From a virus (taxonomy: Duplodnaviria; Caudoviricetes), in the IMG/VR virus record IMGVR_UViG_3300032007_000028: a DNA stretch of 64,000 nt, one strand, 5' to 3'. Shown here in pieces: positions 4,401-32,526 of the stretch. Within the stretch, counting starts at the first letter, position 1. Every line of letters starts with the position of its first letter. The notes beneath the pieces were generated by a model, which did not search any database, was not told the DNA's origin, and worked only from the letters and a program-made list of their open reading frames with translations. The position numbers were made by a program, and so were the translations under genes.

Positions 4401-5036
4401 CTACTCTTCTTCCTCTACTTCGACTTCTTCCTCTTCGCCGGATTCATCGCTATGATAGTTCTCACGAAGGTCTTCGACAATCACATAGACATCGTTGTAG
4501 AATTCTTCAACTGCTTCATCCCAATTGGCATCTTGAGGAGACTGATACTGCTTCATGATTTCCCACAGGTCTTCGGTGTAGATGAGTGAGTCGTCGATAG
4601 CTTGAATGATAGCGTCATGAAGTTCGTCTTCGTCTTCGACATAGATGTCTTCGATTCTATCGATGACGTTTTCGATGATGTCGACGAGTTCGAACGAGGC
4701 GCTGTAATCGAAATGTTTGCCGATTGCGGAACGGATTTCGCTTGCGCTGAGTTCTTCTTTGAGTTGTTCTTTCATGTTATTTACCTCTTGAGTATATTCT
4801 ATCATGCTCCTGGCTTCAGTCAAGTACTTTTTCGCAGATTCAAGATTTTCGAAGAATCTTTCCGATTTGCCTGTACCTTTGTCGCAGTCATAGCCGTCGA
4901 GAACGGATACACCAGCCTCAGCATCTTCGCAGATAACGGATTTGATGTTGTCGTTGTTATCACCATAATATTCGACAATGCGCTTCTTATCCGCGGTTTC
5001 GAACAGATGTCTTTGTTTTGAAGTTTCAATAATCAT
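4401..5036 (-). CDS. Acidic hypothetical (late) protein
   Basis: 211 aa, GAGG SD, late motif at 5057. Confidence 0.75.
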   Translation of the reverse strand: MIIETSKQRHLFETADKKRIVEYYGDNNDNIKSVICEDAEAGVSVLDGYDCDKGTGKSERFFENLESAKKYLTEARSMIEYTQEVNNMKEQLKEELSASEIRSAIGKHFDYSASFELVDIIENVIDRIEDIYVEDEDELHDAIIQAIDDSLIYTEDLWEIMKQYQSPQDANWDEAVEEFYNDVYVIVEDLRENYHSDESGEEEEVEVEEEE

Positions 5037-5054
5037 ATTTCGAGATACCTCTTT

Positions 5055-6797
5055 TTAATTTAGCGTGGGGTTTCCTTCTATTGTGAGAAAATCGTCGATT
5101 GGCATATGCGACAGTTTTTCATTGCCGACACTGCAGTATTCTTGCTTTTTGCCAACTATAGGCCCATCTTTGACGACTGTCACATAGTCGATTGACGGAG
5201 CGTTTTCGGCAACCGTTTTCCAAATTGAATCGAACCAATTAACTTTGCTGTCGACGGGTATTCTGAAGTATATCTCGCCATTGTCGCCACCGTACGCATA
5301 TTTTATATTAGACGTACGCACGCGACAGAACTCTTCGTTCGTCTTTCTAGAAAGTTCTTCGAACAGGGACTTCGCTTCTTCGTTGGTCTTGTCTTCTAGG
5401 CTTTCGAATTTGCTTACGAGAGAAGCGATATCTTCCCTTTTCGTATTCTCTCTGAACCATTCGAGAAAGCCAGAATGTCTGTTCAACAACTCATTCAGAT
5501 TCTTCTCATAAGACGCTTCTTTGAACATCTCTATATAAGGATGGACGGAACCACATTCCAGAAGCTTGCCATCGTTGCGCAACATATATGGGGTATTCGA
5601 TTTCAACATAGGTTCTTTCTTATTCTCGGTCAACGACTTGAATCTCTCGTCCTCGTCATTGCCGTACAGACCGAACGAGAATGCGACGCCATTGGGCAAC
5701 AAAGTGTATCCATCGCACGACTTCGCCAACGCATCGAATATAACGTTCGATGTGGTATATGTTTCGGAATATCTGTCGTCTTTTTCGTCTTTCTTATCGT
5801 GACTCGTAGTCTTCAGCTTTTTGCCCTTTGAGAACGAGAACGTGATGAAACTGTCCTGCGCAAGGGCGTTGGCAAGTTCCTCTGACGTCGTTTCATTCGG
5901 TCTTTCGATGATATACGTATCTGGATTTGCATCGCCAAGATAATAACCGGATACGCGAAGGCCATTGTTCTCCACATACGACACAGCGTTGTCATACGCG
6001 TCTTTGTTGTCGTCTCTTTTCTTTTCGTTGTGCTCGTCGACGTTCGTGGCAAGAATGACGTACTCTTCGCCAAATTTGACGTCTATGTGTTTGGACAATT
6101 CGTAGAAAAAACGTTTTGCGTTGTCGATGACCATCTGCTCTGAAAGACGCTCCAACGAAAGCTGACGAGACTTCAGCTTCTTCGATAAATCCTTCAATTC
6201 GTCCAAATAACCGAGATTGCGCATCTCCTTGAACACGAGATTGCCGATGCCGAATTCTCCGTCTTTGGCGATTGATTCCTTACGCAAATCGTATAGGTCT
6301 TCGATGAAGTCGTAAATCTCTTCGTAAAGGTCATCTTCTTGCGTCGACTGCTTCGATTCATATAAAGACAACGGTATATTTCGTTCTTTGACGAAGTCGA
6401 TGATTTTTTTCTTCATATCGTCTGGGATGACACCCAATGACTTAAACTCGGAATTGTGTATGATGTCGTAAGCGGACCAATTCTTGCTTTCGTTTTTCTT
6501 AAGTCTGCGGTCTGAAATGAAGAAACCAGTAGGCTTTGCGAGATTCGTGCCTTTCAACTCTCCCAAAGAAAACGACAAAAAATCATCTATGTCTTTATAC
6601 TTTTCGACTTGGGAAGTACCATGAATGAAAATCGGATACACGTCTTTCAGAGAAAAGTCTTTGTCTTCGAAGTCTTCCGCATCATACGCGGGGTCGAGTA
6701 TGATTACTGGACGACGCTTCGCAGGCGGGTCGTATTTATGGTCGTTCGGTACCTTGCAAATCAATAATTCGAAGGGCTTTAATACATAGTCTTTCAT
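5055..6797 (-). CDS. Multidomain protein: PemK/MazF-like N-terminus + C-terminal half of a nucleotidyltransferase + unknown modules
   Basis: KRRPVIIL...HGTS...LAKPT; then LYDLRKESIAKDGEFGIGNLVFKEMRNLGYLDEL..LSLE; SLYE/LSE/SLTE linkers. Confidence 0.6.
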   Translation of the reverse strand: MKDYVLKPFELLICKVPNDHKYDPPAKRRPVIILDPAYDAEDFEDKDFSLKDVYPIFIHGTSQVEKYKDIDDFLSFSLGELKGTNLAKPTGFFISDRRLKKNESKNWSAYDIIHNSEFKSLGVIPDDMKKKIIDFVKERNIPLSLYESKQSTQEDDLYEEIYDFIEDLYDLRKESIAKDGEFGIGNLVFKEMRNLGYLDELKDLSKKLKSRQLSLERLSEQMVIDNAKRFFYELSKHIDVKFGEEYVILATNVDEHNEKKRDDNKDAYDNAVSYVENNGLRVSGYYLGDANPDTYIIERPNETTSEELANALAQDSFITFSFSKGKKLKTTSHDKKDEKDDRYSETYTTSNVIFDALAKSCDGYTLLPNGVAFSFGLYGNDEDERFKSLTENKKEPMLKSNTPYMLRNDGKLLECGSVHPYIEMFKEASYEKNLNELLNRHSGFLEWFRENTKREDIASLVSKFESLEDKTNEEAKSLFEELSRKTNEEFCRVRTSNIKYAYGGDNGEIYFRIPVDSKVNWFDSIWKTVAENAPSIDYVTVVKDGPIVGKKQEYCSVGNEKLSHMPIDDFLTIEGNPTLN

Positions 6798-6814
6798 CTG
6801 TTCACCCCACTTAG

Positions 6815-7054
6815 TTACCAGTCGGCCTCGTCCTCTACGCTCGCGAACGAATCGTCATCTGGTTCTTCGATTGAATCGTTTCTGCGAAGCGATTCCATAT
6901 ATGCGATGTTCAATTGACGACGATATGACTCTTCGTCAGAATACGACTCTTTGAGCGACTTCAAAGATTCGACGAATTTAATCAACTCGTCGTCGGTCAT
7001 CGATTTAACCTTCTCGACAATCTTCGAATATCTCTTTTCGTTTTTATCAATCAT
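6815..7054 (-). CDS. Small helical protein, putative antitoxin
   Basis: 79 aa, own consensus promoter, directly upstream of a PemK-like domain. Confidence 0.5.
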   Translation of the reverse strand: MIDKNEKRYSKIVEKVKSMTDDELIKFVESLKSLKESYSDEESYRRQLNIAYMESLRRNDSIEEPDDDSFASVEDEADW

Positions 7055-7078
7055 AACGTCACCTCTACTCTAGCATAA

Positions 7079-7107
7079 ATTATATAAGCACGTTTCTTGC
7101 GTGTCAA
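7079..7107 (-). promoter_or_regulatory. Sigma70/SigA consensus promoter
   Basis: TTGACA-17 nt-TATAAT; the -35 box contains the TGA stop of the upstream ORF. Confidence 0.8.
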
Positions 7108-10058
7108 GCGACTTCGATGATTTTTGGCGTATAGTCGTCAATCCACCCGTCTTGGACATAGTGATGTTGATATTTGCCCAAGGCCTTACCTAACGGGCTT
7201 GACTTATATTTGTCGTCGCTTCTCGTCGTCACCACACCGAAGTCATAGACATACTTACCTTCGTAACCGTCTTCGTTGATGTCTGAACCGTAAGTATCTG
7301 CTACTTTATCGAGAGGTGCATAGATATAGTATATCACGTGTCCACCGTAGTCGTCAAGATAACTGTCCAATTCCCATTTACCTCTGAGCACACCGCTTTG
7401 CGCGAGCTGTGCATAGTAACCACGCTCCCAGGCCGCATCGACCATCTCACGATGAATCAACTCATCTGCATCACACACGAAGAATCTCTTCAGTTTTCTG
7501 TCATACAATATACGTAAAGCTTTTTCTGATGAGCGTAGCATATTCGCCACTTCGTAAGGACTTTCCGTCGTGAATATCTCTTTATCATCATCCACGTACT
7601 CTTCTTTCAAAGACTCATGGGCGTCTCTGACATACTTTATACCGTTTTTCTCACAATACTGTATGGCATATTCGTTGTTTGTGTGCACAGTAAGTCTTAC
7701 GCAACCAGCGAAAGCACGCATGCCAATCGAAGTTACACTATTTGGAATTGTAATAGATGTTAAGGAGTCGCAACGAGAGAAAGCATCATCACCGATTGAA
7801 GTTACACTATTAGGTATCGTAATCGACGTTAAGGATTTGCAACCAGCGAAAGCACCTATGCCAATTTCCGTTACACTATCAGAAATCGTTATGGAAGTTA
7901 AGGATTCACAGTCATAAAAAGCGGCCCCGCCAATTTCCGTTACACTTTTTGGAATTGTTATTGACGTTAAGGAGGCACACCCAAAAAAAGCACTTTCGCC
8001 AATTCTCGTTATGCCACTAGGTATCATAATTGACTTTAAGGATGTGCAACCAGCGAAAACGGCTCTGCCAATTTCCGTTACACTGTCTGATACTGTAATT
8101 GACTCTAAAGACCTACAGGCAAAGAAAGCATCTTCGCCAATCGAAGTGACACTATTTGGAATCGTGATTGACTTTAAGGCCCCGCAGTCACGAAAAGCAT
8201 TTTTGCCAATTCTCGTTATGTCGTCTGGTATTGCTACTGACTTTAAGTAGGCACACCCAAAAAAAGCAAGGTCGCCGATTTTCGTGACACTGTTAGGAAT
8301 CGTTACCGACTTTAATGATGTTGATGCTTTGACAATCTCGGTACCATCGTCGCTTAAAGCAAGTCCATTTACGACTTTGGGTCTTTTTATAACCAACTTT
8401 GCATTAATTAAGTCAATCGGCAACGAGTTGAGTTCAGAATAATCTCGATAGTCTTTTTGATTGAACAACTCGAAATTTGTCTCTTTCAAGTATTCATTAT
8501 CGTTCAAGAATTCATTGACATTAATCGTTCTTGGATATAACGCCAAGGCGTATTCTCCGTAAAACGTAGACGGGTCTAGAAAGTAGAAGAATCTCACCCC
8601 CTTTTTCGTATAATTGTTCCAGTGCTTCTTAGCATCTTTCGCGCTTGGATTATATTCAGGATGCCCTGCATGACCATATCTTCCAGTAGTGCACCAACCC
8701 GTGTTTATACCCAAATCCATCGAGGCTACGTAATCCAAAGGCTCGTATACTAAGTATCCATTCTTTTCGCCCAAAAAGTTATATTTGCCACGAACCTCGC
8801 GGGTCTTGCCCGACATCACGCGTTTTTTCTGAGCGTCTTTTTTGTCATCGTATAACGACAACAGCAAATCGTCCAATTGCTTTTTGTCGTACTTTAAGTA
8901 TTGACCATAATCGACGGAAAGACCTTTGTTGAGCAGACGTTGTTTGGCCTTCTCGAAGTTTTTCGCAGTATCTTCGCCGAACTTGGCGATGAAATCCGTC
9001 TTCGCAGATTCGTCCAATGCGCTTTCCCTAATCAAAGACTCGTCCAAAGGGTGCTCTGTCGACGCAAGAGCGTACTCTATTCTGTCGCGAAGTTCGAAGT
9101 ACTTGTCTTCCCATTTTGAAAGTTCGTCGTCCAACTTCTCTCTGTCTATGTCTGGGATATCCGTCTGAACGGGCTTCTTAACCCAACCGTTTTCGATTGA
9201 ATAGATGCCATTGCTTACGCCTTGGGGCTCGTCCATTTCCACGTAAATCTCCGCAGGAATGCCTTTTATCTTTATTTCGTAGTTCTTGTTGAAGATAGAA
9301 CGATACGCGGAATAAAGCAGAGGATACAACTCGTCTGGACACTCTAGACCTTCGCTGTCCGCTATTAAGTGAATGTCCAAGTCGCTGTCTTTCGTATAGT
9401 TGTAGTTGACGTTTGAGCCGATGAGAACGATGTCCTTGAGATTGAACTTGATTCCGTCCGCCTTCAACTCATCGACGAACGCATTTGCGATTTCAACAAC
9501 TTTGTCTTTTACGTCTTGTCTCAATTCGTCGCCGTCGAATAACTTCTGATTCAGTTCGTCATGCTTCTCGATGTCCTCTTCGATATCGACGGCCAAAGCG
9601 TCGTGCAGTTTTGTGAAGTTGCCGACTCTGTTATTCAATTCCTTCTTTATATACGCCTTGTCCTCTTTCGAGATATCCGCAACGTATTCACCGTAATCGA
9701 TGAAATCCTGTATCGACAAATCGTATGTGAATTTACCTTCCGCTTTGCCGAATCTAAAAATGGTGGGCTTCTTCAATTTATATCTCTTTAGTTGTTCGGC
9801 GTCATCGAAGATTACCGTATCAGGCTCGGCTTCATAACGCTTTACGTTCGTCGTGCCTACAGCGAAAAGAGGGAAGAACTGAGTTAAGTCCTCCTCGTCT
9901 TTCTCTTCTTCGTCGACAAACGTCTCCACAAGAATGACCGGTCTGCCGAATTTTGCTTCTTCTGGGTCATTTAGATGCTCGTTTGGGACTTGTATTTTCC
10001 ACATTTGCCATTCCTTGGGGAACGGCTTCTCTTTCAATATGTTCTCTTCGTCAGGCAT
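7104..10058 (-). CDS. Polyvalent-like protein: PemK-like + pol-beta-fold nucleotidyltransferase (N-part) + WCTT domain + BspA-type LRR + unknown
   Basis: GRPVILV; DIVLIGSNVNYNYTKDSDLDIH (GS..DxD); TGWCTT; about 10 x 23-aa IPNSVTSIGxxAFxxCxSL repeats. Confidence 0.75.
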   Translation of the reverse strand: MPDEENILKEKPFPKEWQMWKIQVPNEHLNDPEEAKFGRPVILVETFVDEEEKDEEDLTQFFPLFAVGTTNVKRYEAEPDTVIFDDAEQLKRYKLKKPTIFRFGKAEGKFTYDLSIQDFIDYGEYVADISKEDKAYIKKELNNRVGNFTKLHDALAVDIEEDIEKHDELNQKLFDGDELRQDVKDKVVEIANAFVDELKADGIKFNLKDIVLIGSNVNYNYTKDSDLDIHLIADSEGLECPDELYPLLYSAYRSIFNKNYEIKIKGIPAEIYVEMDEPQGVSNGIYSIENGWVKKPVQTDIPDIDREKLDDELSKWEDKYFELRDRIEYALASTEHPLDESLIRESALDESAKTDFIAKFGEDTAKNFEKAKQRLLNKGLSVDYGQYLKYDKKQLDDLLLSLYDDKKDAQKKRVMSGKTREVRGKYNFLGEKNGYLVYEPLDYVASMDLGINTGWCTTGRYGHAGHPEYNPSAKDAKKHWNNYTKKGVRFFYFLDPSTFYGEYALALYPRTINVNEFLNDNEYLKETNFELFNQKDYRDYSELNSLPIDLINAKLVIKRPKVVNGLALSDDGTEIVKASTSLKSVTIPNSVTKIGDLAFFGCAYLKSVAIPDDITRIGKNAFRDCGALKSITIPNSVTSIGEDAFFACRSLESITVSDSVTEIGRAVFAGCTSLKSIMIPSGITRIGESAFFGCASLTSITIPKSVTEIGGAAFYDCESLTSITISDSVTEIGIGAFAGCKSLTSITIPNSVTSIGDDAFSRCDSLTSITIPNSVTSIGMRAFAGCVRLTVHTNNEYAIQYCEKNGIKYVRDAHESLKEEYVDDDKEIFTTESPYEVANMLRSSEKALRILYDRKLKRFFVCDADELIHREMVDAAWERGYYAQLAQSGVLRGKWELDSYLDDYGGHVIYYIYAPLDKVADTYGSDINEDGYEGKYVYDFGVVTTRSDDKYKSSPLGKALGKYQHHYVQDGWIDDYTPKIIEVA

Positions 10059-10272
10059 ATATCCAACTCCCGTCCTTCAAGGAATCTCTTGCGTAATCGC
10101 GAGCCTTTATCATTTTCGCGTAACTGAGAAGGAACGCATCGTCCGAATTGGGTTCACTTTTGGACTCGAACATCTTCTTTGCTTCCGACTCCAACTGAGC
10201 GATTCTTTCGTCAAGTTCGCTCTCGCTCAACGCGTCGATTTGCTTTCTCAATTCCTTTTTGCTCATTTTCAT
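10051..10272 (-). CDS. Nested in-frame 73-aa gene (putative antitoxin) forming the tail of the 2122-aa ORF
   Basis: Internal promoter, AGAAGGTGG SD, ATG MKMSKKELRKQIDALSESEL; overlaps the start of the PemK-like ORF. Confidence 0.5.
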   Translation of the reverse strand: MKMSKKELRKQIDALSESELDERIAQLESEAKKMFESKSEPNSDDAFLLSYAKMIKARDYARDSLKDGSWIYA

Positions 10273-13200
10273 GTCCACCTTCTCGCTTATTATAGCACGC
10301 ATACACGAAGAATGCATCAACGATTTCGCACAGCGATGCTTTTCGAGAAGATTATAAGACGCGTTATGCGCTTTGTCAAGAGACAGAGATTCGTACATCT
10401 GCTTAAGATTGTCTTTCGTGTCCTCACTCAAATCGAACGCATTGAAAACGTCGTTGACGGTTACTGAACCGCGTTCGAGGTCTGTGAATATTCTTTGCGT
10501 GATTTCGTTCAATATATCTGGAGAATAGCGAGAGAATTCCAGCAACGCGTCTGGGAAGTCTTTGTGATAAGACCAAAGTTCTTCGCCATCGTCTTCGTTC
10601 GCTATGAGATAGAACCCAGAATCGAAATTCGACTTATCGAGAGCGGCTGCTTTGCCCTTCTCCCAGTTTTTCAGTTCGTCCCAATTCGATATCTGAGGAA
10701 CATCGCCTGCCCACTCCTCTTCATAGTCATAACCGGTCAACTTCTTATACTGTTCTGCAGACATCTTACCGTCGGTGACCGCTTCCCATTCGAGATATTC
10801 ATCGGGTATGGACCAGTCAAGGTCCTTGACGAAGTCGTCGACGTTGTTATACAGAATAAGCGTGCCTTCTTTATAATTATAAGCACTGTCGTTTAGATAA
10901 TGTCTGATGAAGTTGAAGTCGACTTTGCCTTCCGCTATGAGAATTTGTATCTCGTGCTCAGGATTTAATACTGCGTACCATGCTTCGCGCTCTTTGCCGT
11001 CAATCAAGCCCGCGACCTGCTTCACGAAAGGCGCATCGGGAATATACGTAATAGCAATATCGGCGTCGTTGAAAATCTCGTAATGTTTCCTGTCTGGATA
11101 TATGGCTAGTGCGTACTTTCTTCCGTTCTTTCTGTTGATGAAGAAATAGAAGAGTATACCGCTTTCGTGATAACCGTCCCAATGCTCTCTTCCGTTTTTG
11201 CCGTTTTCCCAACGCTTAGAGCCAGAGATGCACCACTTCGTTCCTTTACCGTACTTTACGGAAGCCTCATAATTCGTTATTTCGTAAACGAGCCAATCGT
11301 CGTTCTCGTAGACAAGTTCTGCGCCTTCGTCCTCTTTACGGGCGACTTCTGCCTTCTCGTCGTCCTTTTTCTGCAACGATGAGACAAGCGATGCGAATTC
11401 GCTGAACGGCTTCTTCATCCATGAGTATATGTCACGCTGTTCGCCCTTCAATGAGTTCTTGTACTTATTGAACACGTCGACCGCTTCCTTCGCGTAAACA
11501 CCGGAAGCCCAATCGCTGTATTTCATCGATTTATATCCGTCAGATATCCACTTCAAAAATCTTTCGGTATCAGCTTTCGCTTCCGTTAGCGACTCGTTCA
11601 TATCGATATGAAAATCGTTCTTCAATATATCCTTTATCTCATCTTCATCGTTTTTTAAGAACCAGAGATAGTCGAGCCAGTTTACACCTGCTTCTGCCGC
11701 GTCTCTTATATTTGCTTCTGTTATGTCGTCATAAAAATCGAAGTACTCGTTGAAATCATAACCCATTGCGTCTGGTATTTGAGGGTAACCATCGGGAAGA
11801 GTTGGGACATTTGGTATACCAGCCACTTTGCAGTCCTCTTGATTGAAAATCATTTCAGCGTGATTGCCAATAACGCCTACTGCGTGACGCATGTACTTGG
11901 AATCGTCTCTCGGTATGAAGAACAGAAAATACTCTATTCCCAAATTGTCTCTATAAGAATCCCAGTCATCTTCATCGGTTATACACCAAGTGGTGTTGCG
12001 ACCATATTTTCTGCTTGCTTCGTACGACGTTATCTTATATACGTACCAAACATCGCTCTCCGCGACTCTCTCTGCACCTGAATTCTCTTTGTCTATGAGT
12101 TCTTTTTTCTCTTCGCTCTTTCGTACGTAGTTAGTCAAAAAGTAGAAGAACTCGGACGGGTCTCTCTTCATCCAGTAGTAATAATCGGTCTCTTTTCCGG
12201 AGTTGTCTTTTCTATATGATTGAAACAGCGCAAGACAATCATTTGCACTGCGCATATATTCAGAAACATCTATGTCCGAATCTGACCATCCACGCCCGAC
12301 TTTCTGATATGCATCGTCTAGCCATTTTTTGAAGTTCTCGTCATCCTGTTTCGATTCCGTTAGCGATTCTCTGAATGTACTCAACGTTTTCTCTACGAAT
12401 CTATTGTTCACATCATCGTACTGATAGAGTTTAATGCCCTCCAATTTACTGAGCAGTTCTTTATAGGAAACCTCGTTTCTGTCCATGTAATGCAAAAGCT
12501 TATGAAGCAATTCCCTGTCTTTCCAGTCTTTCGATTTTATGAACCAAATGTTCTTGTATGAGTTGTCTTTCAAACCATTTTCGTATGCATCGCTCAAATG
12601 ATGTACACTAAGTTCCTTGGTGTCTATGATACCTTCGAAATTGTTGTCTTTCGCAATCTTTACTATGTTATTTTTTAGTTTTTTATTTTGATATTTCTGC
12701 TTGTTGGGCACTCCACTTGAACCTTCGTTTACGTTGTCGCTGTTCGTCGGCTCTTTATTTGTAATTGCCTTTATCTGATTTGCATCGAATGCAATATACG
12801 ACATGTCTCCACTTATCATGTCGCTGGCCTCGAAATTGTTCTGATAATATATACCGTCATAGCCTCTGTTCTTCAACAATCTTCTTAGAAGTCTTGATTC
12901 GTCAGAGTTGTATTTATCCGCAAACGAATCGCACTCTGCGGCCTCCGCATCAGACGTAATATCGGTTTCTTTGCCTGTGCCTAGAGACCTTCCATTAAAG
13001 AAAAGCACTTTGTTTATTTCCTTTAATTCATCTTCTGTCATGTCGAAATCGAATATGCTTCCATATTTATCGAACGACTGACTCCACCACCAAAATAGAA
13101 CAGAGTACGGGCCTGTTTCGCCAAAATCGTACATATATGCAGGATTCTTTATATTCAAATAATAAGAATAAACTTTGCCTGCATCAAATGGAAATTCATT

Positions 13201-16200
13201 TGCAATAGCTTGAGCCTGCGCTTTCGTCCCAAAATGAAAGCCTATATCGCCACGCGCGAATTTATCGAAGTTCTTATCGGTGCCGTGATACACAACAAGC
13301 AATTTTCCGTTGTTATCGCGAATACTGCTGTCTTTGAAAAACGCAATTTGCTCCTTACTTAAGACATTACCTTCGTTGTCTGTTTCTTGTAAATCTTCGT
13401 TTATATTGTCACTGCTTGTAGGATTTATATTGTCGACGCTCTTTATAGCGTTCGGTAAAAACACCTCAATCTCAGTACGACGATTCTCTATGTCTTCATC
13501 ACTGAGCACTATTATACCATCGTAACCGGACATCTCTGCCAACTCATCGAATCTCTTGTGTTCTCCCATTATCTTCTCATAATACATCTCAACGAGATAC
13601 CAGTCTCCAAACGGATGATACATGCTGTCGTAGAGAGCAGAATCGAATGCTCCGGTTGTATCGACTAGAATAGTAGATATGACGTCGGCATCGAGCGACG
13701 AATCGTTGTGATGAAGAATCACTGGGTTCTCTAGATTCAAGTACACGACTTTGTATTTGTCGCCATGCGAAAATATGTTTTCGGAACTCGTCGAAAAATA
13801 CATGCCATCTCCAAACAGACCTATCTTCGCGAGGCCTCTGTTGAACGTATCGAACTCATACTTAGTCGAATGATAGCAAACGACAAGTTCTCCTTTTTTG
13901 TTACGAACTTTGCTGTTCTTGAAGAACTCAATCTGCTCTTTACTTAAAGGATTGCCTTCATTATCCGTTTCTTGCAAATCTTCTGTTATTTTTTCGGTAT
14001 CCCAAAGTTTGTGTAAGGTATCCAAAATGAATTTATCCTGCTCTTCGTTGAAATGCCATCTAGTGTCTTTGTTCTTTTCGTACCACTCAAAAGGCGTGTT
14101 GTTGAATTCCTCACTCATCGCACACCAATCACAGCACATCTCTTCTAATGCGGATTCGGGCATCTTTGAGCAATCTAAACAACCATGAGGAGTTGGATTA
14201 TCTCTAGAGAATCCTTCGATATCTTTAGGGTCTACCCAATGTTCACAGTGATGTTCGTTATTGATAACATGCTTAAAAGTAGCATCGTCAATCATCGCTT
14301 GTTCTTCTTTTGTGATATCCTCTTTATTTTTGGACATTAAAGAATAACCAGCATATAACTCGTTGAACTTGTCGCTGTCATGGTTTGGATAACTTCTACC
14401 TATCTTCTTGGCATATTTATTTACTCTATCGATATGGGCATGAGTTCTCTCATCAAATTTCTTCTGATAATCTTCTTTATTGCCCTTTTTTACTACCTTC
14501 TCATTTAGATGAAAATAGTTTTTAATCATCCTAACTAATTTATAACCAGTCCAATTACCAATATTTTCATCCCAGTGATAATCTTGACAAGCCCCCTCTC
14601 TTAAACTAAAAACTTTATAAAAATCGGGTTTATTATTTTTCCATATTTCAACTTTACAATAATCTTCAATATCTAAGTATTTGTCAATAATTTCTTCTAA
14701 TTTTTTATATTGAATTTCATTGGGTTCATTAAATATTCTAACACAAGTATCTTCTTCGGCGTGAGTGTTAGAAAATTCAGGATACCCCATTTTTTCTAAT
14801 CCCTCATCTTCCCCATGATATTCATCGAGAATTATTAGTGAACCGTCTTCTTTTACATACCCAGCCGTACCGAGTTGGAATTCGTTTGTTTCTATATATT
14901 CTTGTAAGCGTTTGAAATAATGAACTTGCTTCAATCTCTTTTCAGCTTCTGCTTTGGTATCGTAAGTACCTAGGTTCTTTCCTTTTTCAGACTGAACCTG
15001 CCATTTACTGCCTTTTTTGACTATTTTTTCTGTCAACGACTCATCCATTTCGCGCTCGAACTGATAAACGCGAACTGGCTCAGGCAATACTGAATACAAA
15101 TCAGTTCTGTCGAAATCGTTGCCTAAGTCCGCAATCTTGAAGTCGCCGTAATCGTATACGTTTATCTCGAGGTTATAATCTATCACGTCATCATCAATTT
15201 CGTTCTTCGTATAGAAAAGATATCTGTCGATATAATACGCCGAAGCCGTAAGTTTCATATCGACTGCCTGGTCTTCGAGGTCCATATGAATGTAATTCGA
15301 ACCATCACCAACCACCCACATGCCAGAATCCTTCAGGTGAAGCAGCCTCAATATACCATAATAGTTACGTTGAGCGTACGCAACCAAATAGTTCTTGCAC
15401 TCATATACCGAATCGAAATACACGGCATCATAGTCTTCCGAGAACAAACAATGCGTGCTTTCGTTTATCTTATTGTAAGAATTATAGAACTTCGTACCGT
15501 CGTTCGTGGTATAGCCCCAATTTATCTCTTTATATTCTTTCTTCAGAGAGTCTATCAAAGCGGTCGCTATGCCTTTGCGACGTTCCGATTCCTTGACTTC
15601 AATCATCTGTATATACGCGGTATCCTCTTCGTCGTCAGCAACGGAGTACTGAAGATAGCCGAGAATGTTCTCTCGTATGATTCTGTCGTGTTCGTCCATC
15701 CAGTCATCGCCAACGTAGGCAATCTTCATGTAGTCGGATTGACCTGAATAACCACCAGTGCACTCTGTCCAGATGTTGTACTCACGACCTGCTTTGTCCT
15801 TCTTCGATTCTTTGCTCGATTCTTCAATATTCTTGCCGTTCGCATCTTCGAAAACCCTACCAAACGCGAACGTTCTTTTTAATTTTTCTATAATCTCGTC
15901 TGTCGTGTTCTCGTCGAAACGATACGACACGTAATCCGATTTGTCGGTCAGAAAACAATAGACGGCAGATTTATATTTCTGCACTTCGTCCAAATACTCT
16001 TCGATTACCTCGTATTGAGCGTCCGTCGGCTTCTTAAGCGCAACCAGCTTCGCACGAGGTTCTACGTACGTTCTTCCTTCGTTGAGCGTTATGATTCCCA
16101 AATCAGACTCGACGTAGTCCATGATGCGTCTATCGTCGTCAAGTTCGTATATTTCGTAATCGACGTCTTCGTCGTCTGGATACTCATCTCTCAAATCCTG

Positions 16201-16401
16201 CGCCAACGAATCGAATATGAGATGGAAGAACGTGAAATGCGTCGCGTCTCCGTCTAGATTCACGGACGTCAGGTCGTAGACGTCGCCATTCGGCAACACT
16301 ATCGATGGGCCAACTCCCAATCTTTCTGGACAGTTCAAAGACTGCGCGTATTCCTCTACGTCATCCAATGTAAACGACAAAAAACTCTTGACATCAACCA
16401 T
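10051..16401 (-). CDS. Giant polyvalent-like protein (~2116 aa): GNAT, HD-like, 2x ADP-ribosyltransferase-like, possible HNH-like, 2x WCI domains
   Basis: ERRKGIATAL (GNAT motif A); HDSDKF..HHCEHW..EMCCDW; two YH(S/G)T..YLN(L/I)xNP..GYDGI..IK modules; TTWCIT and TKWCIS; ATG 8 nt after late motif. Confidence 0.75.
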   Translation of the reverse strand: MVDVKSFLSFTLDDVEEYAQSLNCPERLGVGPSIVLPNGDVYDLTSVNLDGDATHFTFFHLIFDSLAQDLRDEYPDDEDVDYEIYELDDDRRIMDYVESDLGIITLNEGRTYVEPRAKLVALKKPTDAQYEVIEEYLDEVQKYKSAVYCFLTDKSDYVSYRFDENTTDEIIEKLKRTFAFGRVFEDANGKNIEESSKESKKDKAGREYNIWTECTGGYSGQSDYMKIAYVGDDWMDEHDRIIRENILGYLQYSVADDEEDTAYIQMIEVKESERRKGIATALIDSLKKEYKEINWGYTTNDGTKFYNSYNKINESTHCLFSEDYDAVYFDSVYECKNYLVAYAQRNYYGILRLLHLKDSGMWVVGDGSNYIHMDLEDQAVDMKLTASAYYIDRYLFYTKNEIDDDVIDYNLEINVYDYGDFKIADLGNDFDRTDLYSVLPEPVRVYQFEREMDESLTEKIVKKGSKWQVQSEKGKNLGTYDTKAEAEKRLKQVHYFKRLQEYIETNEFQLGTAGYVKEDGSLIILDEYHGEDEGLEKMGYPEFSNTHAEEDTCVRIFNEPNEIQYKKLEEIIDKYLDIEDYCKVEIWKNNKPDFYKVFSLREGACQDYHWDENIGNWTGYKLVRMIKNYFHLNEKVVKKGNKEDYQKKFDERTHAHIDRVNKYAKKIGRSYPNHDSDKFNELYAGYSLMSKNKEDITKEEQAMIDDATFKHVINNEHHCEHWVDPKDIEGFSRDNPTPHGCLDCSKMPESALEEMCCDWCAMSEEFNNTPFEWYEKNKDTRWHFNEEQDKFILDTLHKLWDTEKITEDLQETDNEGNPLSKEQIEFFKNSKVRNKKGELVVCYHSTKYEFDTFNRGLAKIGLFGDGMYFSTSSENIFSHGDKYKVVYLNLENPVILHHNDSSLDADVISTILVDTTGAFDSALYDSMYHPFGDWYLVEMYYEKIMGEHKRFDELAEMSGYDGIIVLSDEDIENRRTEIEVFLPNAIKSVDNINPTSSDNINEDLQETDNEGNVLSKEQIAFFKDSSIRDNNGKLLVVYHGTDKNFDKFARGDIGFHFGTKAQAQAIANEFPFDAGKVYSYYLNIKNPAYMYDFGETGPYSVLFWWWSQSFDKYGSIFDFDMTEDELKEINKVLFFNGRSLGTGKETDITSDAEAAECDSFADKYNSDESRLLRRLLKNRGYDGIYYQNNFEASDMISGDMSYIAFDANQIKAITNKEPTNSDNVNEGSSGVPNKQKYQNKKLKNNIVKIAKDNNFEGIIDTKELSVHHLSDAYENGLKDNSYKNIWFIKSKDWKDRELLHKLLHYMDRNEVSYKELLSKLEGIKLYQYDDVNNRFVEKTLSTFRESLTESKQDDENFKKWLDDAYQKVGRGWSDSDIDVSEYMRSANDCLALFQSYRKDNSGKETDYYYWMKRDPSEFFYFLTNYVRKSEEKKELIDKENSGAERVAESDVWYVYKITSYEASRKYGRNTTWCITDEDDWDSYRDNLGIEYFLFFIPRDDSKYMRHAVGVIGNHAEMIFNQEDCKVAGIPNVPTLPDGYPQIPDAMGYDFNEYFDFYDDITEANIRDAAEAGVNWLDYLWFLKNDEDEIKDILKNDFHIDMNESLTEAKADTERFLKWISDGYKSMKYSDWASGVYAKEAVDVFNKYKNSLKGEQRDIYSWMKKPFSEFASLVSSLQKKDDEKAEVARKEDEGAELVYENDDWLVYEITNYEASVKYGKGTKWCISGSKRWENGKNGREHWDGYHESGILFYFFINRKNGRKYALAIYPDRKHYEIFNDADIAITYIPDAPFVKQVAGLIDGKEREAWYAVLNPEHEIQILIAEGKVDFNFIRHYLNDSAYNYKEGTLILYNNVDDFVKDLDWSIPDEYLEWEAVTDGKMSAEQYKKLTGYDYEEEWAGDVPQISNWDELKNWEKGKAAALDKSNFDSGFYLIANEDDGEELWSYHKDFPDALLEFSRYSPDILNEITQRIFTDLERGSVTVNDVFNAFDLSEDTKDNLKQMYESLSLDKAHNASYNLLEKHRCAKSLMHSSCMRAIISEKVDMKMSKKELRKQIDALSESELDERIAQLESEAKKMFESKSEPNSDDAFLLSYAKMIKARDYARDSLKDGSWIYA
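10351..10379 (-). promoter_or_regulatory. Sigma70/SigA consensus promoter embedded in coding sequence
   Basis: TTGACA-AAGCGCATAACGCGTCT(17)-TATAAT. Confidence 0.7.
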
Positions 16402-16409
16402 AATCAATG

Positions 16410-16418
16410 AATTTAGCA
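16410..16418 (-). promoter_or_regulatory. Putative late promoter TGCTAAATT
   Basis: 8 nt before ATG of the giant ORF. Confidence 0.65.
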
Positions 16419-16432
16419 AAGAAGCGCGCTTC

Positions 16433-23705: not shown

Positions 23706-24338
23706 TCAATTCACCTCTGAATAATCATCCTCTTTCAGTTCGTATTTGCACAATTTCTTCAGACGCTTCATTTCCGTTTTGGAGTTCGCTATTAGATATA
23801 GATATCGATTCTTCGAGAATCTCTTCACCGGAATCCAACCACGCTCTTTGGCCATTTCCTTCGTGATGTTGACGCCACACTGTCTAGGATGTCTTAACCT
23901 ACCGTCTTTGTCGAGAAAGAACGTCGCTTGACCAGTCTTCCCTATATAATAAAAGTGCGTAGCTTGATATACGATTCCCTTATGACCTTGCGTAGAGTCC
24001 GAAAAAGAAATAACTGCCTTTATTCTGGGCAAATCTGTCTTAAGCAACTTCAAACATCTGGATATGAAATACGACTCCGTATTCTTTGGGGTACCGTCTA
24101 GCACATGAAGACGATGCAGTTCTATGACGCTGTCTTTATACTCTTCGCCAAACACGGATGCCCGTACGTTCTCAGAACACGGGGTTGCAAAAGCAAGCGC
24201 ACCAATCAGATTCCCCTCTTTGTCGAATAAACCGTAACAGGGAGAAGGGCCGTTATGACAACCGTGGGAATAATGATTCTTTATGATGTATTCTTTCGCT
24301 TGTTTAGCTGGAATTCTTTTAACCTCGTAATCAATCAT
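23706..24338 (-). CDS. Mom-like (GNAT-fold) DNA adenine modification enzyme
   Basis: HYSH..YGLF..ELHRL..PKNTESYFISRCLK..ISFSDSTQGHKGIVYQAT pattern of Mom family. Confidence 0.75.
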   Translation of the reverse strand: MIDYEVKRIPAKQAKEYIIKNHYSHGCHNGPSPCYGLFDKEGNLIGALAFATPCSENVRASVFGEEYKDSVIELHRLHVLDGTPKNTESYFISRCLKLLKTDLPRIKAVISFSDSTQGHKGIVYQATHFYYIGKTGQATFFLDKDGRLRHPRQCGVNITKEMAKERGWIPVKRFSKNRYLYLIANSKTEMKRLKKLCKYELKEDDYSEVN

Positions 24339-24363
24339 TTTTAGCCTCGTAATCAATCATCGT

Positions 24364-25058: not shown

Positions 25059-26123
25059 TTAGGCGCCAACTTCGGCGGTCGGGACCACCTGGTTGGCTTC
25101 GGCGTTCTTGACGTCGACAACTTCGCCAGCAACCAAGAGAGCGGTGTTGAGAAGTTTTAAATCGTACAACGTCATCCAGCCTTGGCTGTTACCACCGTCA
25201 GCGAAGTTGAGCAACGCGGTCGGGGTGATGACCATGTAGGGAGCGAAGACGGCCGCAGAGGTCATGAGGTCGTCGCCGTTGAAGCCGCAGAACCACTTGC
25301 CGGGTTCGAGGATGGGGCTGACGAAGACTTTGAGACCGTTGAGGGTACCAGCGAAGTAGGGACCATTGCGGACTGCGGAAGCGGCAGCCTTCCAACCACG
25401 CATCAAAGCGAGCATGGGCTTGACGTTGGAGGCGCACACCATGTAGTTGGCGTGATAGCGTTGAGTTCTGTCGAAGATGATTCTGGAAGCCTGTTCGATG
25501 GTTTCAGAGAAAGCTTCGTAGTGCTGTTCCATGGAGATTCCGACAGGGACTCTCTTGTTGAACACGAGCGTTTCGTCTTTCGGAGCGGCGCCAGCGAGCA
25601 ACTTGACGATTTCGGTGTCGATTTCGTAAGAGAGTTCAGCGACTGCTTGCTTCGCGAGGACGTCACCGAGGTCGAGGCCCATTTCGGTCTTGGCTTGGAA
25701 AGCGGCCATCTGGTCGAAGTAGATAGCGATACGACGCGGTTTGGCTTCGAGGGCGATGCCTTCGACTTTCATGCCAAGGGTCGGGAGGTCGTTTGCGGGG
25801 ATGCGGACTTGGTCATAGAGATATTTGACCTTGACGATGCCGGAAGCACCGGTGATTTTGACTTCGCCAGTGGCTGCGTCGACGACTTCGATGGAAGCAC
25901 CGGATTCGGCACCAACGAGTTCGGGAGCGTAGGCAGCGGAGATAGGAGTCCAAGCGAGGAAAGCTTTGCCTTCTTCACCGACTTCGACGAGTTCAGCGAC
26001 TGCTTGGGAGGTGTAGTCGATGCGAGCATCGGACATCTTGCCAAGGGCGAACGGGTCATTGAAGACGTCACCTTTTTCGATACCGCCTTTGTTGGAAAGG
26101 GCGATGAAGCGGATGTATTGAAT
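25059..26123 (-). CDS. Major capsid protein (T4 gp23-like), exon 2
   Basis: IQYIRF...EAKPRRI..ELSYEIDTEI..GTLNG..VFAPYM; strongly biased codon usage; joins exon 1 in frame to give 451 aa. Confidence 0.9.
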   Translation of the reverse strand: MQYIRFIALSNKGGIEKGDVFNDPFALGKMSDARIDYTSQAVAELVEVGEEGKAFLAWTPISAAYAPELVGAESGASIEVVDAATGEVKITGASGIVKVKYLYDQVRIPANDLPTLGMKVEGIALEAKPRRIAIYFDQMAAFQAKTEMGLDLGDVLAKQAVAELSYEIDTEIVKLLAGAAPKDETLVFNKRVPVGISMEQHYEAFSETIEQASRIIFDRTQRYHANYMVCASNVKPMLALMRGWKAAASAVRNGPYFAGTLNGLKVFVSPILEPGKWFCGFNGDDLMTSAAVFAPYMVITPTALLNFADGGNSQGWMTLYDLKLLNTALLVAGEVVDVKNAEANQVVPTAEVGA

Positions 26124-27516
26124 CGGTTCTGTTAATCATGTATATTCTTAGTAAATGACTTTGTAGTTAAGACGATTTCTTTTCGCACAGGCTAGTTTCT
26201 CAGGGTCTCTTATCGTCCAGACCTCTATCGCTGTCTGATAGAATTTGGACGTCTTGGCGAGTTCCTGCCATTTGCGAAGTTTCTCTCTACATTCCTCATC
26301 GTTCTCGTCGTACGGCTTACCACCGTGCGTCCAATGAGCGTTGAGTTCGATGAAGAGGTCGTCTTCGACTATGTAGAAGTCACAGTAGTAAGGATATCTT
26401 TTCTTGTCCTTGTACTGTCTGTATATGGTCTTGTTTACGTTTTCTTTGAGCAGTTGTCTGTACAGGTCTTCCTCAGGCTTAGAGTAATTAACAGTACCAT
26501 TAAGTTTCTTCGTGAGAAACGCCTTCGTGACGCGCATTTTTATCTGCTCTGGCGACAAGCGGCTGTTCATGGTTCTCATGTTGTCGCGAACTTTTTTGGA
26601 AACAGGATGTCCCATTTTCGACTTCGATATCTTTTCGATTACTTCATTAGGTCTCTTTTTACCTTTTTGATAGCTTGCTGTGCTTCTTATTTTGGTATGA
26701 GACCTTATGTAATAATACGTTACAGTGTTCGTATAGCCGAATTTTTTAGAACATTGCGTTACCGTGCTTCCTCCTTCGTACATCTCGACGATGCGTTTCC
26801 CTATTTCTTCGGGAATTTCGAGTGTGTGCGATTCGGAGTTGGAACGTATTTCGATACCGTGTTCTTTGAGGACTCTTCTGACCACTTTTGCGCTAAGATT
26901 CAGTTCCTTAGCGCATTTCTCGACGGTTTTCTTTTCGTTTACGTATTTGCTAACGACCTGCTTTTGCAGTTCTTCGTCGACTTTGGTTCTTTGAGCCTCT
27001 GACATCTTTCTTCTAGTCTCTTCAGACCGTTTGATGCCTTTAAGTTTGCGAGAAATCTTTTGTCTCGCTTCTTTCGATATCTTTGCCATATACAATTCTC
27101 CACAAAGCATTACTTCTCGTTCAAGCGTCAGTCGACTTTCGTCGAGCGAGTTGTGGCTCGCTATCTTGAACGATGCTGTCATTTACCAGTAATATCAAAC
27201 TCACTACATTACTATAGTGTCCAGACTATATTATCATCCAATTTCGTCTCATCCTAATTGGATGCCACATCTTTCGGACCGAAGTCCTACTCTACTTGCT
27301 TCTTCATCTTGATATTTCTTCAAGACTATGCTTTCGATAGTCGTTGAGCCTTGTCTGAGAGTCGCGAGCGTAACTGATAGTAAAGGAATAAATCTATCTT
27401 ATTTTACGCGACTTTTTTCTCAAACCTTGGTTGCTGATTGCCCTTACTGGAGGGTTTTCCAGCAGTTAATGTGGTTTTTTGCTGATGCATTACTGCATCA
27501 GGGATTCTATCAGTTA
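26124..27516 (-). mobile_element. Group I intron in the major capsid gene
   Basis: P1 GGATTT/GAATCC with U.G at the 5' splice site; core AATCAGCAACCAAG, TCAACGACTA, ATATAGTCT; terminal G at 26124. Confidence 0.9.
26148..27089 (-). CDS. Intron-encoded homing endonuclease (NUMOD3/HTH repeats + Vsr-like EDxHD-type nuclease)
   Basis: KRSEETRRKMSEA NUMOD3; YYCDFY..FIELNAHWTHG; located 3' of the intron core. Confidence 0.8.
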   Translation of the reverse strand: MAKISKEARQKISRKLKGIKRSEETRRKMSEAQRTKVDEELQKQVVSKYVNEKKTVEKCAKELNLSAKVVRRVLKEHGIEIRSNSESHTLEIPEEIGKRIVEMYEGGSTVTQCSKKFGYTNTVTYYYIRSHTKIRSTASYQKGKKRPNEVIEKISKSKMGHPVSKKVRDNMRTMNSRLSPEQIKMRVTKAFLTKKLNGTVNYSKPEEDLYRQLLKENVNKTIYRQYKDKKRYPYYCDFYIVEDDLFIELNAHWTHGGKPYDENDEECREKLRKWQELAKTSKFYQTAIEVWTIRDPEKLACAKRNRLNYKVIY

Positions 27517-32481: not shown

Positions 32482-32526
32482 ATGTTTCCCCCAACGTGGA
32501 ATCTGCATAGAATTTCGCATTCTTCG

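Follow-up and report, generated by a model that had tools for sequence, protein, structure and literature searches.

The stretch of DNA analysed here (the window; 64,000 nucleotides) carries two long neighbouring open reading frames on the minus strand, one of 984 aa (P0001, 7104–10058, −) and one of 580 aa (P0002, 5055–6797, −). P0001 begins with an N-terminal domain (9609–10025, −; residues about 12–150) that is homologous to the N-domain of P0002 (BLASTP of P0001 against P0002, 1e-9 over residues 15–210 and 7–204), and the profile built for this domain matches only these two ORFs. The P0002 copy (6372–6788, −; residues 4–142) has a predicted MazF/PemK fold, an SH3-like barrel, over the whole domain: in a wide structural search of 48,161 chains with its AF2 model (m1ced44c4d456) the top nine VIA-align hits are all MazF/Kid toxins (Z 8.2–10.3, rmsd 2.7–3.6, 99–110 residues aligned, about 105 of 110). 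The RNase catalytic residues were not examined. The related N-domains of P0011 and P0016 match Pfam PemK_toxin, although an hhalign comparison of the N-domain with these PemK-positive domains was uninformative (probability 5%) and only the fold search settled the question.

Behind its N-domain, P0001 holds the catalytic part of a Pol-beta-fold nucleotidyltransferase (NTase) in two segments. S1 (9231–9584, −; residues 159–276) comprises an N-terminal helix and the catalytic core (GS...DxD...E), and S2 (9072–9227, −; residues 278–329) comprises the last strands and the first helix of the helical subdomain (SNGIYS..W.KKP..WEDKYF). The hG[GS] motif followed within about 10–13 residues by DxD, and the third acidic residue on a later strand, are present in GSNVNYNYTKDSDLDIH and AEIYVE, and the corresponding columns (G62, D74, D76 and E118) are invariant in 39 homologues. 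Pfam matches of P0001 to NTP_transf_2 and Polbeta are weak and fall below the curated cut-offs, but in the AF2 model of a 60%-identical intact homologue (pLDDT 87.9) the core (residues 16–146) aligns to MNT, CD-NTase, Tailor and AadA at Z 5.8–7.3. After GIYSI and WVKKP the NTase sequence stops in a linker, HPLDESLIRESALDES, within a loop region (9003–9071, −; ..EYALASTEHPLDESLIRESALDES) that contains three L/I-x-E motifs. The remainder of P0001 consists of an unnamed "GWC" domain (about 8340–9002), BspA-type LRR_5 repeats (7689–8336, −; Pfam 2.9e-79) with a 69-nt tandem DNA periodicity over 7711–8331, and a C-terminal domain (7107–7616).

The missing C-terminal piece of the NTase, S3 (6147–6326, −; residues 158–217), lies in P0002 after the N-domain and consists of three helices (IYDFIEDLYDLRKESIAKDGEFGIGNLVFKEMRNLGYLDEL..LSLE; the ORF reads LRKESIAKDGEFGIGNLVFKEMRNLGYLDEL...LSLE). 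It is followed by two unnamed modules without a Pfam match (5055–6146, −), of which the C-terminal one (RNDGKLLECG...) recurs in other polyvalent proteins and is 49% identical to a module of the polyvalent protein L003. Between the two genes there are a perfect sigma-70 consensus promoter-like site (TTGACA-17-TATAAT, 12 of 12 matches; 7079–7107, −) at the stop codon of P0001 and a small acidic helical ORF of 79 aa without a Pfam match (P0166; 6815–7054, −). A second perfect promoter-like site lies upstream of P0001 (10351–10379), and a unit of similar size to P0166, the last roughly 73 codons of a 2122-aa ORF, precedes P0001; the two small units show no detectable similarity to each other. The 2122-aa ORF (10051–16419, −) is a polyvalent protein with ART-PolyVal (4.6e-29), DUF5662 (3e-17) and GNAT (1e-7) domains. 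P0001 sits between it and a head-tail adaptor-like gene, downstream of the genes for a T4-like portal (30640–32520; Pfam 1e-41), a T4 gp21/S77-like prohead maturation protease (27856–29457, −; phrog_207 1.8e-35; Pfam Peptidase_S77 1.7e-5, below the curated cut-off) and the terminase.

The two ORFs cover complementary, non-overlapping parts of one family profile. Of the 247 positions of phrog_36119 (LNPKLW...GxNxNYNY...GEFxxxNLVFKxxRNxG), residues 156–310 of P0001 match positions 12–169 (E 3e-20) and residues 159–215 of P0002 match positions 191–247 (E 3e-6), whereas neither protein alone spans the profile. HMMs built for the three segments (S1core, S2mid, S3hair) find exactly one S1+S2 (9072–9584) and one S3 in the window, with E values of 1.6e-59, 3.8e-25 and 3.6e-33, and nothing else scores below E 0.01. 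An earlier note, made from the sequence alone, had described an NTase split between these two ORFs. This observation is confirmed, and the note's coordinates are accurate to within a few codons. The note had also named beforehand what would speak against it, namely that homologues never contain both segments in one domain; they do, since a 250-aa cyanophage protein (P0003) and dozens of others carry S1, S2 and S3 contiguously. Its statement that the GEF..NL.FK..R..GYL segment is normally the contiguous C-terminus of the family is therefore correct.

The closest syntenic relative (L072/P0008) is intact. S1 of P0001 is 75% identical to that of L072, S3 of P0002 is 74–82% identical to S3 of intact relatives, and in a tree of S1 the pair of P0001 and its 99%-identical homologue P0055 is sister to P0008 (support 94). 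P0008 and L072 have the same REHPLDESLI loop as P0001 but then run directly into S3, which supports the note's idea of modules inserted mid-enzyme. In the AF2 model of the intact module S2 corresponds to strands 133–142 and helix 154–175, and the break lies in the inter-helix loop 176–191, which has the lowest internal pLDDT. Relatives carry in-frame insertions of 70–190 aa in the same loop (P0019, P0030, P0034, P0043, L020) and of about 100 aa in loop 1 (P0050). Modules clearly move between genes: for example, the homologous GWC+LRR cassette sits in a different gene in L072 and inside loop 1 in the contig G004. A search for direct or inverted repeats at the insertion borders found only the LRR periodicity and short chance-level matches; there is no sign of a transposon-like or site-specific insertion.

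It is very unlikely that the split is an artefact, i.e., an assembly chimera, a frameshift, a recoded stop codon or a polypeptide restored by splicing or translational bypass. It should be noted that some relatives (L004, L027, L079 and the contig G001) read TGA as a sense codon, so that gene calls with translation table 11 fragment their genes. In the window, however, both ORFs are long and uninterrupted under table 11, and the 2.7 kb between the pieces encode conserved in-frame domains, a stop codon, a consensus promoter, a small ORF and a new N-domain. No intein, Hint or homing-endonuclease match was found in 5055–10058. Nearly identical proteins with the same architecture come from several independent assemblies (P0055 at 99%, P0004 at 98%, P0005 at 94%). 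A megablast of 5000–10100 against GenBank phages gave no match, and IMG/VR scans with whole P0002 and with the S1-only protein P0152 found nothing.

The window is not a one-off, a point that the earlier note missed together with the existence of a second break point. An unbiased S3 profile search found, among the top 150 cluster representatives, 68 that are S3-only, 59 intact, 21 S2-S3 and one circularly permuted (S3-S1-S2, P0229), as well as stand-alone S3 proteins of 76–109 aa; P0216, with 12 apparent stretches, is an unrelated repeat protein and a false positive. The S3-bearing clusters number 1,215. In whole contigs, G003 (94% complete) and G001 have S1S2 and S3 in different genes 20–23 kb apart, and G004 (complete) has S1 in one gene and S2S3 in the next. 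Six contigs with intact enzymes have no extra S3. Indeed, every IMG/VR contig examined has at most one copy of each segment, whether joined or apart, and no near-complete contig has S3 without a core. Five protein pairs (P0055/P0004, P0071/P0029, P0072/P0015, P0078/P0017 and P0152/P0022), taken to share a contig because their contigs are equally long, each join a hairpin-only (S3-only) protein to a protein lacking S3, and none joins a hairpin-only protein to an intact enzyme. If partners were drawn at random from S1-bearing hits, about 69% of which are intact, the chance of this would be about 0.003. In one of these lineages (P0152, S1-only, and P0022, S3-only) no S2 was located, and an attempt to match S2-S3 proteins to the S1-only clade in the same way found no partners.

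These counts bear on a rival reading, in which S3 is an autonomous mobile module with its own role, such as a docking or oligomerisation tag, a packaging signal or a regulator, the core-only NTase of P0001 works or fails independently of it, and the complementarity is incidental to module shuffling. In favour of it, S3-only proteins are as common as intact ones and occur in many unrelated architectures, S3 is predicted as a self-contained helical unit in the P0002 model, and it is more strongly conserved than its neighbouring modules. In the samples S3-only forms are also more common than core-only forms, which may point to an extra role for S3, and P0152 and P0022 lack a visible S2. However, in stand-alone enzymes S3 is always part of the domain, with invariant R, K and N residues, no contig examined has S3 together with an intact enzyme, five of five same-contig partners lack S3, and the circular permutant keeps S3 directly joined to S1S2. 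We therefore consider this reading possible but the less likely one.

Still less likely is that the two pieces are neutral wreckage of a recent recombination in a fast-shuffling polyvalent gene array and that the NTase is dead in this phage, its remnants simply not having decayed yet. The sister lineage is intact, so that the event is relatively recent on the tree, and there are no activity data. Nevertheless, all near-invariant residues are intact in both pieces, and all 21 unique hairpin-only S3 sequences keep R, GE[FY], GNLVFK, R and GYLD. The N-domain+S3 architecture is conserved in P0004–P0007 at 98, 94, 67 and 41% identity (67 and 41% being the identity of the flanking N-domain). Breaks fall only in two loops, and the pieces are exactly complementary. 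Between G001 and G003, which share the split, dN/dS is 0.22 for the hairpin and 0.22 for the core, with dS of 0.5–1.15. For the window's own lineage no dN/dS could be given because Nei-Gojobori dS between the window and its relatives is saturated, while the protein sequence is 72–75% conserved.

The best reading, to which we assign a probability of roughly 0.6, is a Pol-beta-fold NTase domain encoded in pieces whose parts reassemble in trans. In the ancestor, as in the sister lineage P0008/L072, S1-S2-S3 would have formed one module of a phage polyvalent (probably virion-cargo) protein, and about 2.7 kb now lies in the surface loop between the first and second helix of the helical subdomain. 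The analysis shows that the break is exact and complementary, that both pieces keep all family-invariant residues, that the same fission has happened repeatedly at this loop and at one other, that genomes keep one copy of each segment, and that both pieces stay under purifying selection after fission. That the two polypeptides, made from adjacent same-strand genes, associate non-covalently so that S3 completes the helical subdomain and supplies its conserved Arg, Lys and Asn residues to the active site is inferred. No physical or predicted interface between them was obtained, a co-fold of the two fragments was not attempted, and, as the window covers only 64 kb of a genome of roughly 149 kb, an intact paralogue elsewhere in this phage is not excluded. 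The note's interpretation is thus partly supported: reassembly in trans was not tested directly but is supported indirectly by the single copy of each segment per contig, the complementary pairs, the purifying selection on both pieces, and the natural circular permutant together with the stand-alone S3 mini-proteins.

Inferred more weakly is that both proteins are packaged into the head and trimmed at L/I-x-E linkers by the gp21-like protease. This would yield a core of about 190 aa and an S3 peptide of about 70 aa, which together match the size of the 230–250-aa stand-alone enzymes. The note's proposal of a maturation-gated enzyme remains an inference; [LI]xE motifs are about 3-fold enriched just upstream of S3 and are enriched at module borders (57% against 20%), but neither packaging nor cleavage has been shown, and delivery into the host with the DNA was not measured here. 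The function of the whole NTase family is uncharacterised and the substrate is unknown; protein or small-molecule nucleotidylylation of a host target is suggested only by analogy with MNT and ANT enzymes and by the recurrent LRR neighbour. More speculatively, and rather unlikely, the fragments form a built-in split-enzyme device: S1S2 and S3, carried on different cargo proteins or released from them by the prohead protease at L/I-x-E sites, would assemble only inside the capsid or after ejection, activity would be gated by maturation or delivery, the same interaction would couple different cargo proteins non-covalently, and the repeated independent fissions and the permutation would be selected rather than merely tolerated.

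If reassembly is confirmed, this would be a natural split-enzyme system inside phage cargo proteins. It would show how polyvalent effector arrays evolve below the level of the domain, offer ready-made split points for a Pol-beta NTase and give a handle on an uncharacterised, widespread phage NTase family. Here one small catalytic domain is found whole, with large loop insertions, cut at either of two loops, circularly permuted and as a free helical piece across hundreds of uncultured phage lineages.

The two-domain Pol-beta NTases, such as ANT(4′)/kanamycin NTase, AadA/ANT(3″)(9), AAD(9) and the CD-NTases, likewise have a Pol-beta core (hG[GS], DxD, third carboxylate) followed by a helical subdomain (Foldseek E 4e-4 to 1e-2 over the whole model; VIA-align Z 5.8–6.6 on the core). 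Sequence similarity is marginal, however: a PDB sequence profile search gave a best E of 0.016, to the core only, and no ANT, and the helical part of the model matched only generic helical bundles. Whether the enzyme belongs to an ANT family is left undecided by a resemblance at the fold level only (Foldseek E 4e-4, TM 0.27), and this is not evidence of aminoglycoside resistance, despite the GenBank product name of P0003, which is an annotation without confirmation. The best structural matches to the core are MNT-like proteins (2rff, Z 7.3; 1ylq, Z 7.2), and in MNT-HEPN toxin-antitoxin pairs a small Pol-beta NTase core and a helical protein are also encoded as two polypeptides that form a complex. 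S3 (LRKESIAKDGEF...NLVFKEMRNLGYL) is not a HEPN domain, as it contains no His at all and no Rx4-6H motif, no HEPN family appears among the Pfam matches, and it is only three helices of about 60 aa that are an integral part of the catalytic domain in homologues; it is neither a toxin nor a substrate.

With polyvalent proteins of phages and conjugative elements (Iyer et al., 2017; PMC5512222) P0001 shares several unrelated effector-type domains in one polypeptide encoded among virion genes, next to an ART-PolyVal/GNAT/DUF5662 neighbour; such proteins are expected to be delivered with the DNA and processed into units. That study reports no sub-domain fragmentation, and no zincin MPTase was found in P0001 or P0002. 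In fractured genes with split inteins (Dassa et al., 2009; PMC2677866) a coding region is also interrupted so that two separately encoded polypeptides must cooperate, but here the Pfam and PHROG scans of both proteins show no intein or Hint blocks at the break, and its flanks are ordinary conserved domains, the GWC domain and the MazF-fold domain. Naturally fragmented enzymes that work by non-covalent reassembly are rare and usually single cases. For example, in the T4-related Aeromonas phage Aeh1 NrdA is split by mobE into NrdA-a and NrdA-b, which reassemble into an active reductase (Crona et al., 2011; PMC3045599). As there, a phage enzyme gene is broken into two adjacent genes by inserted DNA, and function is proposed here, and shown there, to be restored by non-covalent assembly without RNA or protein splicing. 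In the present case no HNH, GIY-YIG or LAGLIDADG match was found in P0001, P0002 or P0166, the inserted DNA consists of other effector modules plus a promoter, a small ORF and a MazF-fold unit, the break lies inside a single small domain, the pieces are fused to different multidomain proteins, and the fission is recurrent at two loops and comes with a circular permutant.

Two ORFs on the same strand lie next to each other, P0001 (7104-10058, 984 aa) and P0002 (5055-6797, 580 aa). P0001 carries at residues 156-345 a Pol-beta NTase signature (GSNVNYNYTKDSDLDIH, AEIYVE, SNGIYSI, WVKKP and WEDKYF) and then runs into HPLDESLIRESALDES, whereas P0002 reads IYDFIEDLYDLRKESIAKDGEFGIGNLVFKEMRNLGYLDEL...LSLE at residues 158-217. 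The PHROG family phrog_36119 (247 positions) matches P0001 at profile positions 12-169 and P0002 at positions 191-247, which are complementary, non-overlapping parts of one family. Whether homologues ever hold both parts in a single domain had been set out in the earlier note as a criterion on which its proposal would stand or fall; both parts are found in one chain in a 250-aa cyanophage protein (P0003) and in many IMG/VR proteins. The split that the earlier note had described is therefore real, and its statement that the P0002 segment is normally the contiguous C-terminus of this NTase family is correct.

The domain was divided into three segments, for each of which an HMM was built: S1, the N-terminal helix plus the catalytic core up to E.YVE; S2, SNGIYS...W.K.P...WEDKYF; and S3, the C-terminal helices. 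The window contains exactly one S1+S2 (9072-9584) and one S3 (6147-6326), and nothing else scores, although it should be noted that the remaining roughly 85 kb of this phage's genome were not seen. An AlphaFold2 model of the intact module from the relative L002, built on a 39-sequence alignment (pLDDT 87.9), shows a Pol-beta core at residues 16-146 and a helical subdomain made of helix 154-175 (S2) and helices 192-219, 221-231 and 234-250 (S3). The break in the window falls in loop 176-191, which has the lowest internal confidence. The core of the model aligns with MNT-like NTases, CD-NTases, Tailor and AadA/ANT at Z 5.8-7.3, the helical part has no specific match, and the viral structure neighbours are all uncharacterised. 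Invariant columns across the 39 homologues include G62, S73, D74, D76, H78 and E118 in the core and R209, G217, N223, K227 and R230 in S3, and both window pieces keep them.

After S2, P0001 continues with an unnamed "GWC" domain, BspA-type LRR_5 repeats (Pfam 3e-79) and a C-terminal domain (7107-7616; ..RILYDRKLKRFFVCDADELIHREMVDAAWERGYY..) of unknown function, which recurs in the hairpin-bearing (S3-bearing) proteins of other phages (L069 of contig G003, P0039-P0041, P0015; 38% identity to the 612-aa protein of G003). Next come a perfect TTGACA-17-TATAAT site (7107-7079), an acidic ORF of 79 aa (6815-7054) and then P0002, the first 142 residues of which are predicted to have a MazF/Kid fold: the top nine hits of 48,161 chains are all MazF-family (Z 8.2-10.3). 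P0001 starts with a homologous domain (BLASTP 1e-9) and is likewise preceded by a perfect promoter-like site (10379-10351) and a small helical unit (10051-10272), so that each polypeptide has its own copy of the same N-terminal unit. Both sites match the sigma-70 consensus at 12 of 12 positions on the minus strand, and each is followed by a small helical ORF of about 75-79 aa and then by a protein starting with the MazF-fold domain. This repeated "restart" unit inside the polyvalent array looks like a toxin-antitoxin-derived cassette, although the two small ORFs are not detectably similar to each other. No intein, homing endonuclease or meaningful border repeat is present between the pieces, and that the split is an artefact, or is mended by some form of splicing, is considered very unlikely.

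The window is the head module of a tailed phage with a T4-like portal, a gp21/S77-like prohead protease, a terminase, a major head protein and, directly upstream, a 2122-aa polyvalent protein with GNAT, DUF5662 and ART-PolyVal; P0001 and P0002 belong to this polyvalent array. The match to the major head protein covers only profile positions 180-407 of 444 in a 325-aa ORF (25059-26036, minus strand), and the next ORF upstream (26148-27182, minus strand) carries an HNH endonuclease match; the capsid gene may itself be interrupted. A strong match to Mom-like DNA modification protein (phrog_1384, 2e-56) also lies inside the head gene region (23706-24356, minus strand).

The closest syntenic IMG/VR relative, L072 (128.8 kb), which corresponds to the database protein P0008, has the enzyme intact. 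It has the same P0001-type N-domain, an S1S2 that is 75% identical and the same REHPLDESLI loop, which there leads straight into S3. In L072 the GWC+LRR cassette sits instead in the upstream giant gene (6889-7914), so modules move within the array. The cassette keeps company with the NTase but changes position: it follows S2 in the window (7689-9002), lies between S1 and S2 in L070 of contig G004 (2242-5115) and follows S3 in P0049. In a quick ML tree of S1 the split pair P0001+P0055 is sister to intact P0008 (support 94), and both window pieces are about equally distant (72-74%) from P0008, which fits fission of one ancestral module.

The split is not unique to this window. A search with P0002 residues 1-230 found N-domain+S3 proteins without a core at 98, 94, 67 and 41% identity (P0004-P0007), S3 alone in many other architectures, and in P0011 a MazF-type N-domain followed by an intact NTase. 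A search with the P0001 core found 21 S1S2-only and 13 S1-only proteins among the 120 listed, of which many end exactly after S2 and all S1-only proteins end at ...YVETE; the latter, P0152-type LRR proteins of 786-1613 aa, form a clade ending exactly at the S1 strand (...YGIPVELYVETE). A profile search with S3 alone over 1.84 billion cluster representatives gave 1,215 hits at E ≤ 0.001. Of the best 150 of these, 68 are S3-only, some of them only 76-109 aa long, 59 are intact, 21 are S2-S3, and one, P0229 (530 aa), is a natural circular permutant in which S3 (299-358) joins directly to S1 (359-477) and S2 (480-528), the protein ending right after S2. That S3 is an autonomous module is considered a less likely reading. 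Relatives also carry in-frame insertions of 70-190 aa in the S2/S3 loop and, in P0050, which is sister to the S1-only clade, one of about 100 aa in the S1/S2 loop. On the tree the S1S2-only state needs about 10 changes, at least 3 of which are forced by well-supported branches.

Several lines of evidence suggest that the pieces remain a functional set. All 21 unique hairpin-only S3 sequences keep the conserved residues, just as intact enzymes do. Whole-contig searches found no contig with more than one copy of any segment. G003 (94% complete) and G001 have S1S2 at the N-terminus of one large protein and S3 at the C-terminus of another, 20-23 kb away; G004 (complete, with terminal repeats) has S1 in a 161-aa ORF and S2S3 at the end of the next gene, 958 aa long; six contigs with intact enzymes have exactly one core and one S3; and G002, a 19% fragment, shows S3 only. 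Five pairs of database proteins, taken to share a contig only because their contigs are identical in length, each join a hairpin-only protein to a protein lacking S3 (four S1S2-only, one S1-only), and none joins a hairpin-only protein to an intact enzyme. In one of these, P0152/P0022, in which P0022 is the S3-only protein, no S2 was located for the lineage. G001 and G003 share the split state although G001 reads TGA as a sense codon, and between them dN/dS is 0.22 for S3 and 0.22 for S1S2. Part of this phage group appears to use a recoded stop, since several relatives (L004, L027, L079 and, in G001, L022, L065 and L071) have in-frame TGA at conserved Trp positions and give long ORFs only when TGA is read as Trp (code 4). 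Synonymous sites between the window and its relatives are saturated (60% nucleotide identity against about 75% amino-acid identity in S3), and conservation therefore acts on the protein, not on a DNA recombination linker. That the two pieces are undecayed wreckage of a recent recombination is regarded as unlikely.

Our best explanation, to which we assign a probability of about 0.6, is an NTase encoded in pieces, with S3 from P0002 completing the helical subdomain of the P0001 core in trans. The complementary split, the retention of the conserved residues, the single copy of each segment on the contigs examined and the low dN/dS are results of the analysis, whereas reassembly is inferred from them, an interface between the two polypeptides having been neither predicted nor measured. 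The earlier note had also proposed, as a possibility, trimming by the prohead protease. T4 gp21 cleaves after Glu in L/I-x-E, and a gp21-like protease is encoded nearby. [LI]xE occurs within 18 residues upstream of S3 in 67 of 117 distinct contexts (57%), against 20% of background windows, and S3 nearly always ends in LSLE, often followed by xLxE, but this pattern also appears in the S2/S3 loop of many intact polyvalent forms. Trimming of P0001 and P0002 at such sites would give a core of about 190 aa and an S3 of about 70 aa, the latter similar in size to the natural stand-alone S3 proteins. This supports the idea as a possibility, but nothing here shows cleavage or packaging, and the interpretation offered in the earlier note is partly supported by our data.

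In the papers searched no description was found of the function of this family or of its fragmentation, and Iyer et al., in their account of polyvalent proteins, describe no sub-domain fragmentation. MNT-HEPN pairs are a looser analogue, but S3 is not a HEPN domain. The nearest precedent for the mechanism is the NrdA-a/NrdA-b pair of Aeh1, which is created by mobE insertion and reassembled non-covalently (PMC3045599). An enzyme encoded in two pieces is already known, and what differs here is that no homing endonuclease is present between its pieces and that the split is not unique to one phage.
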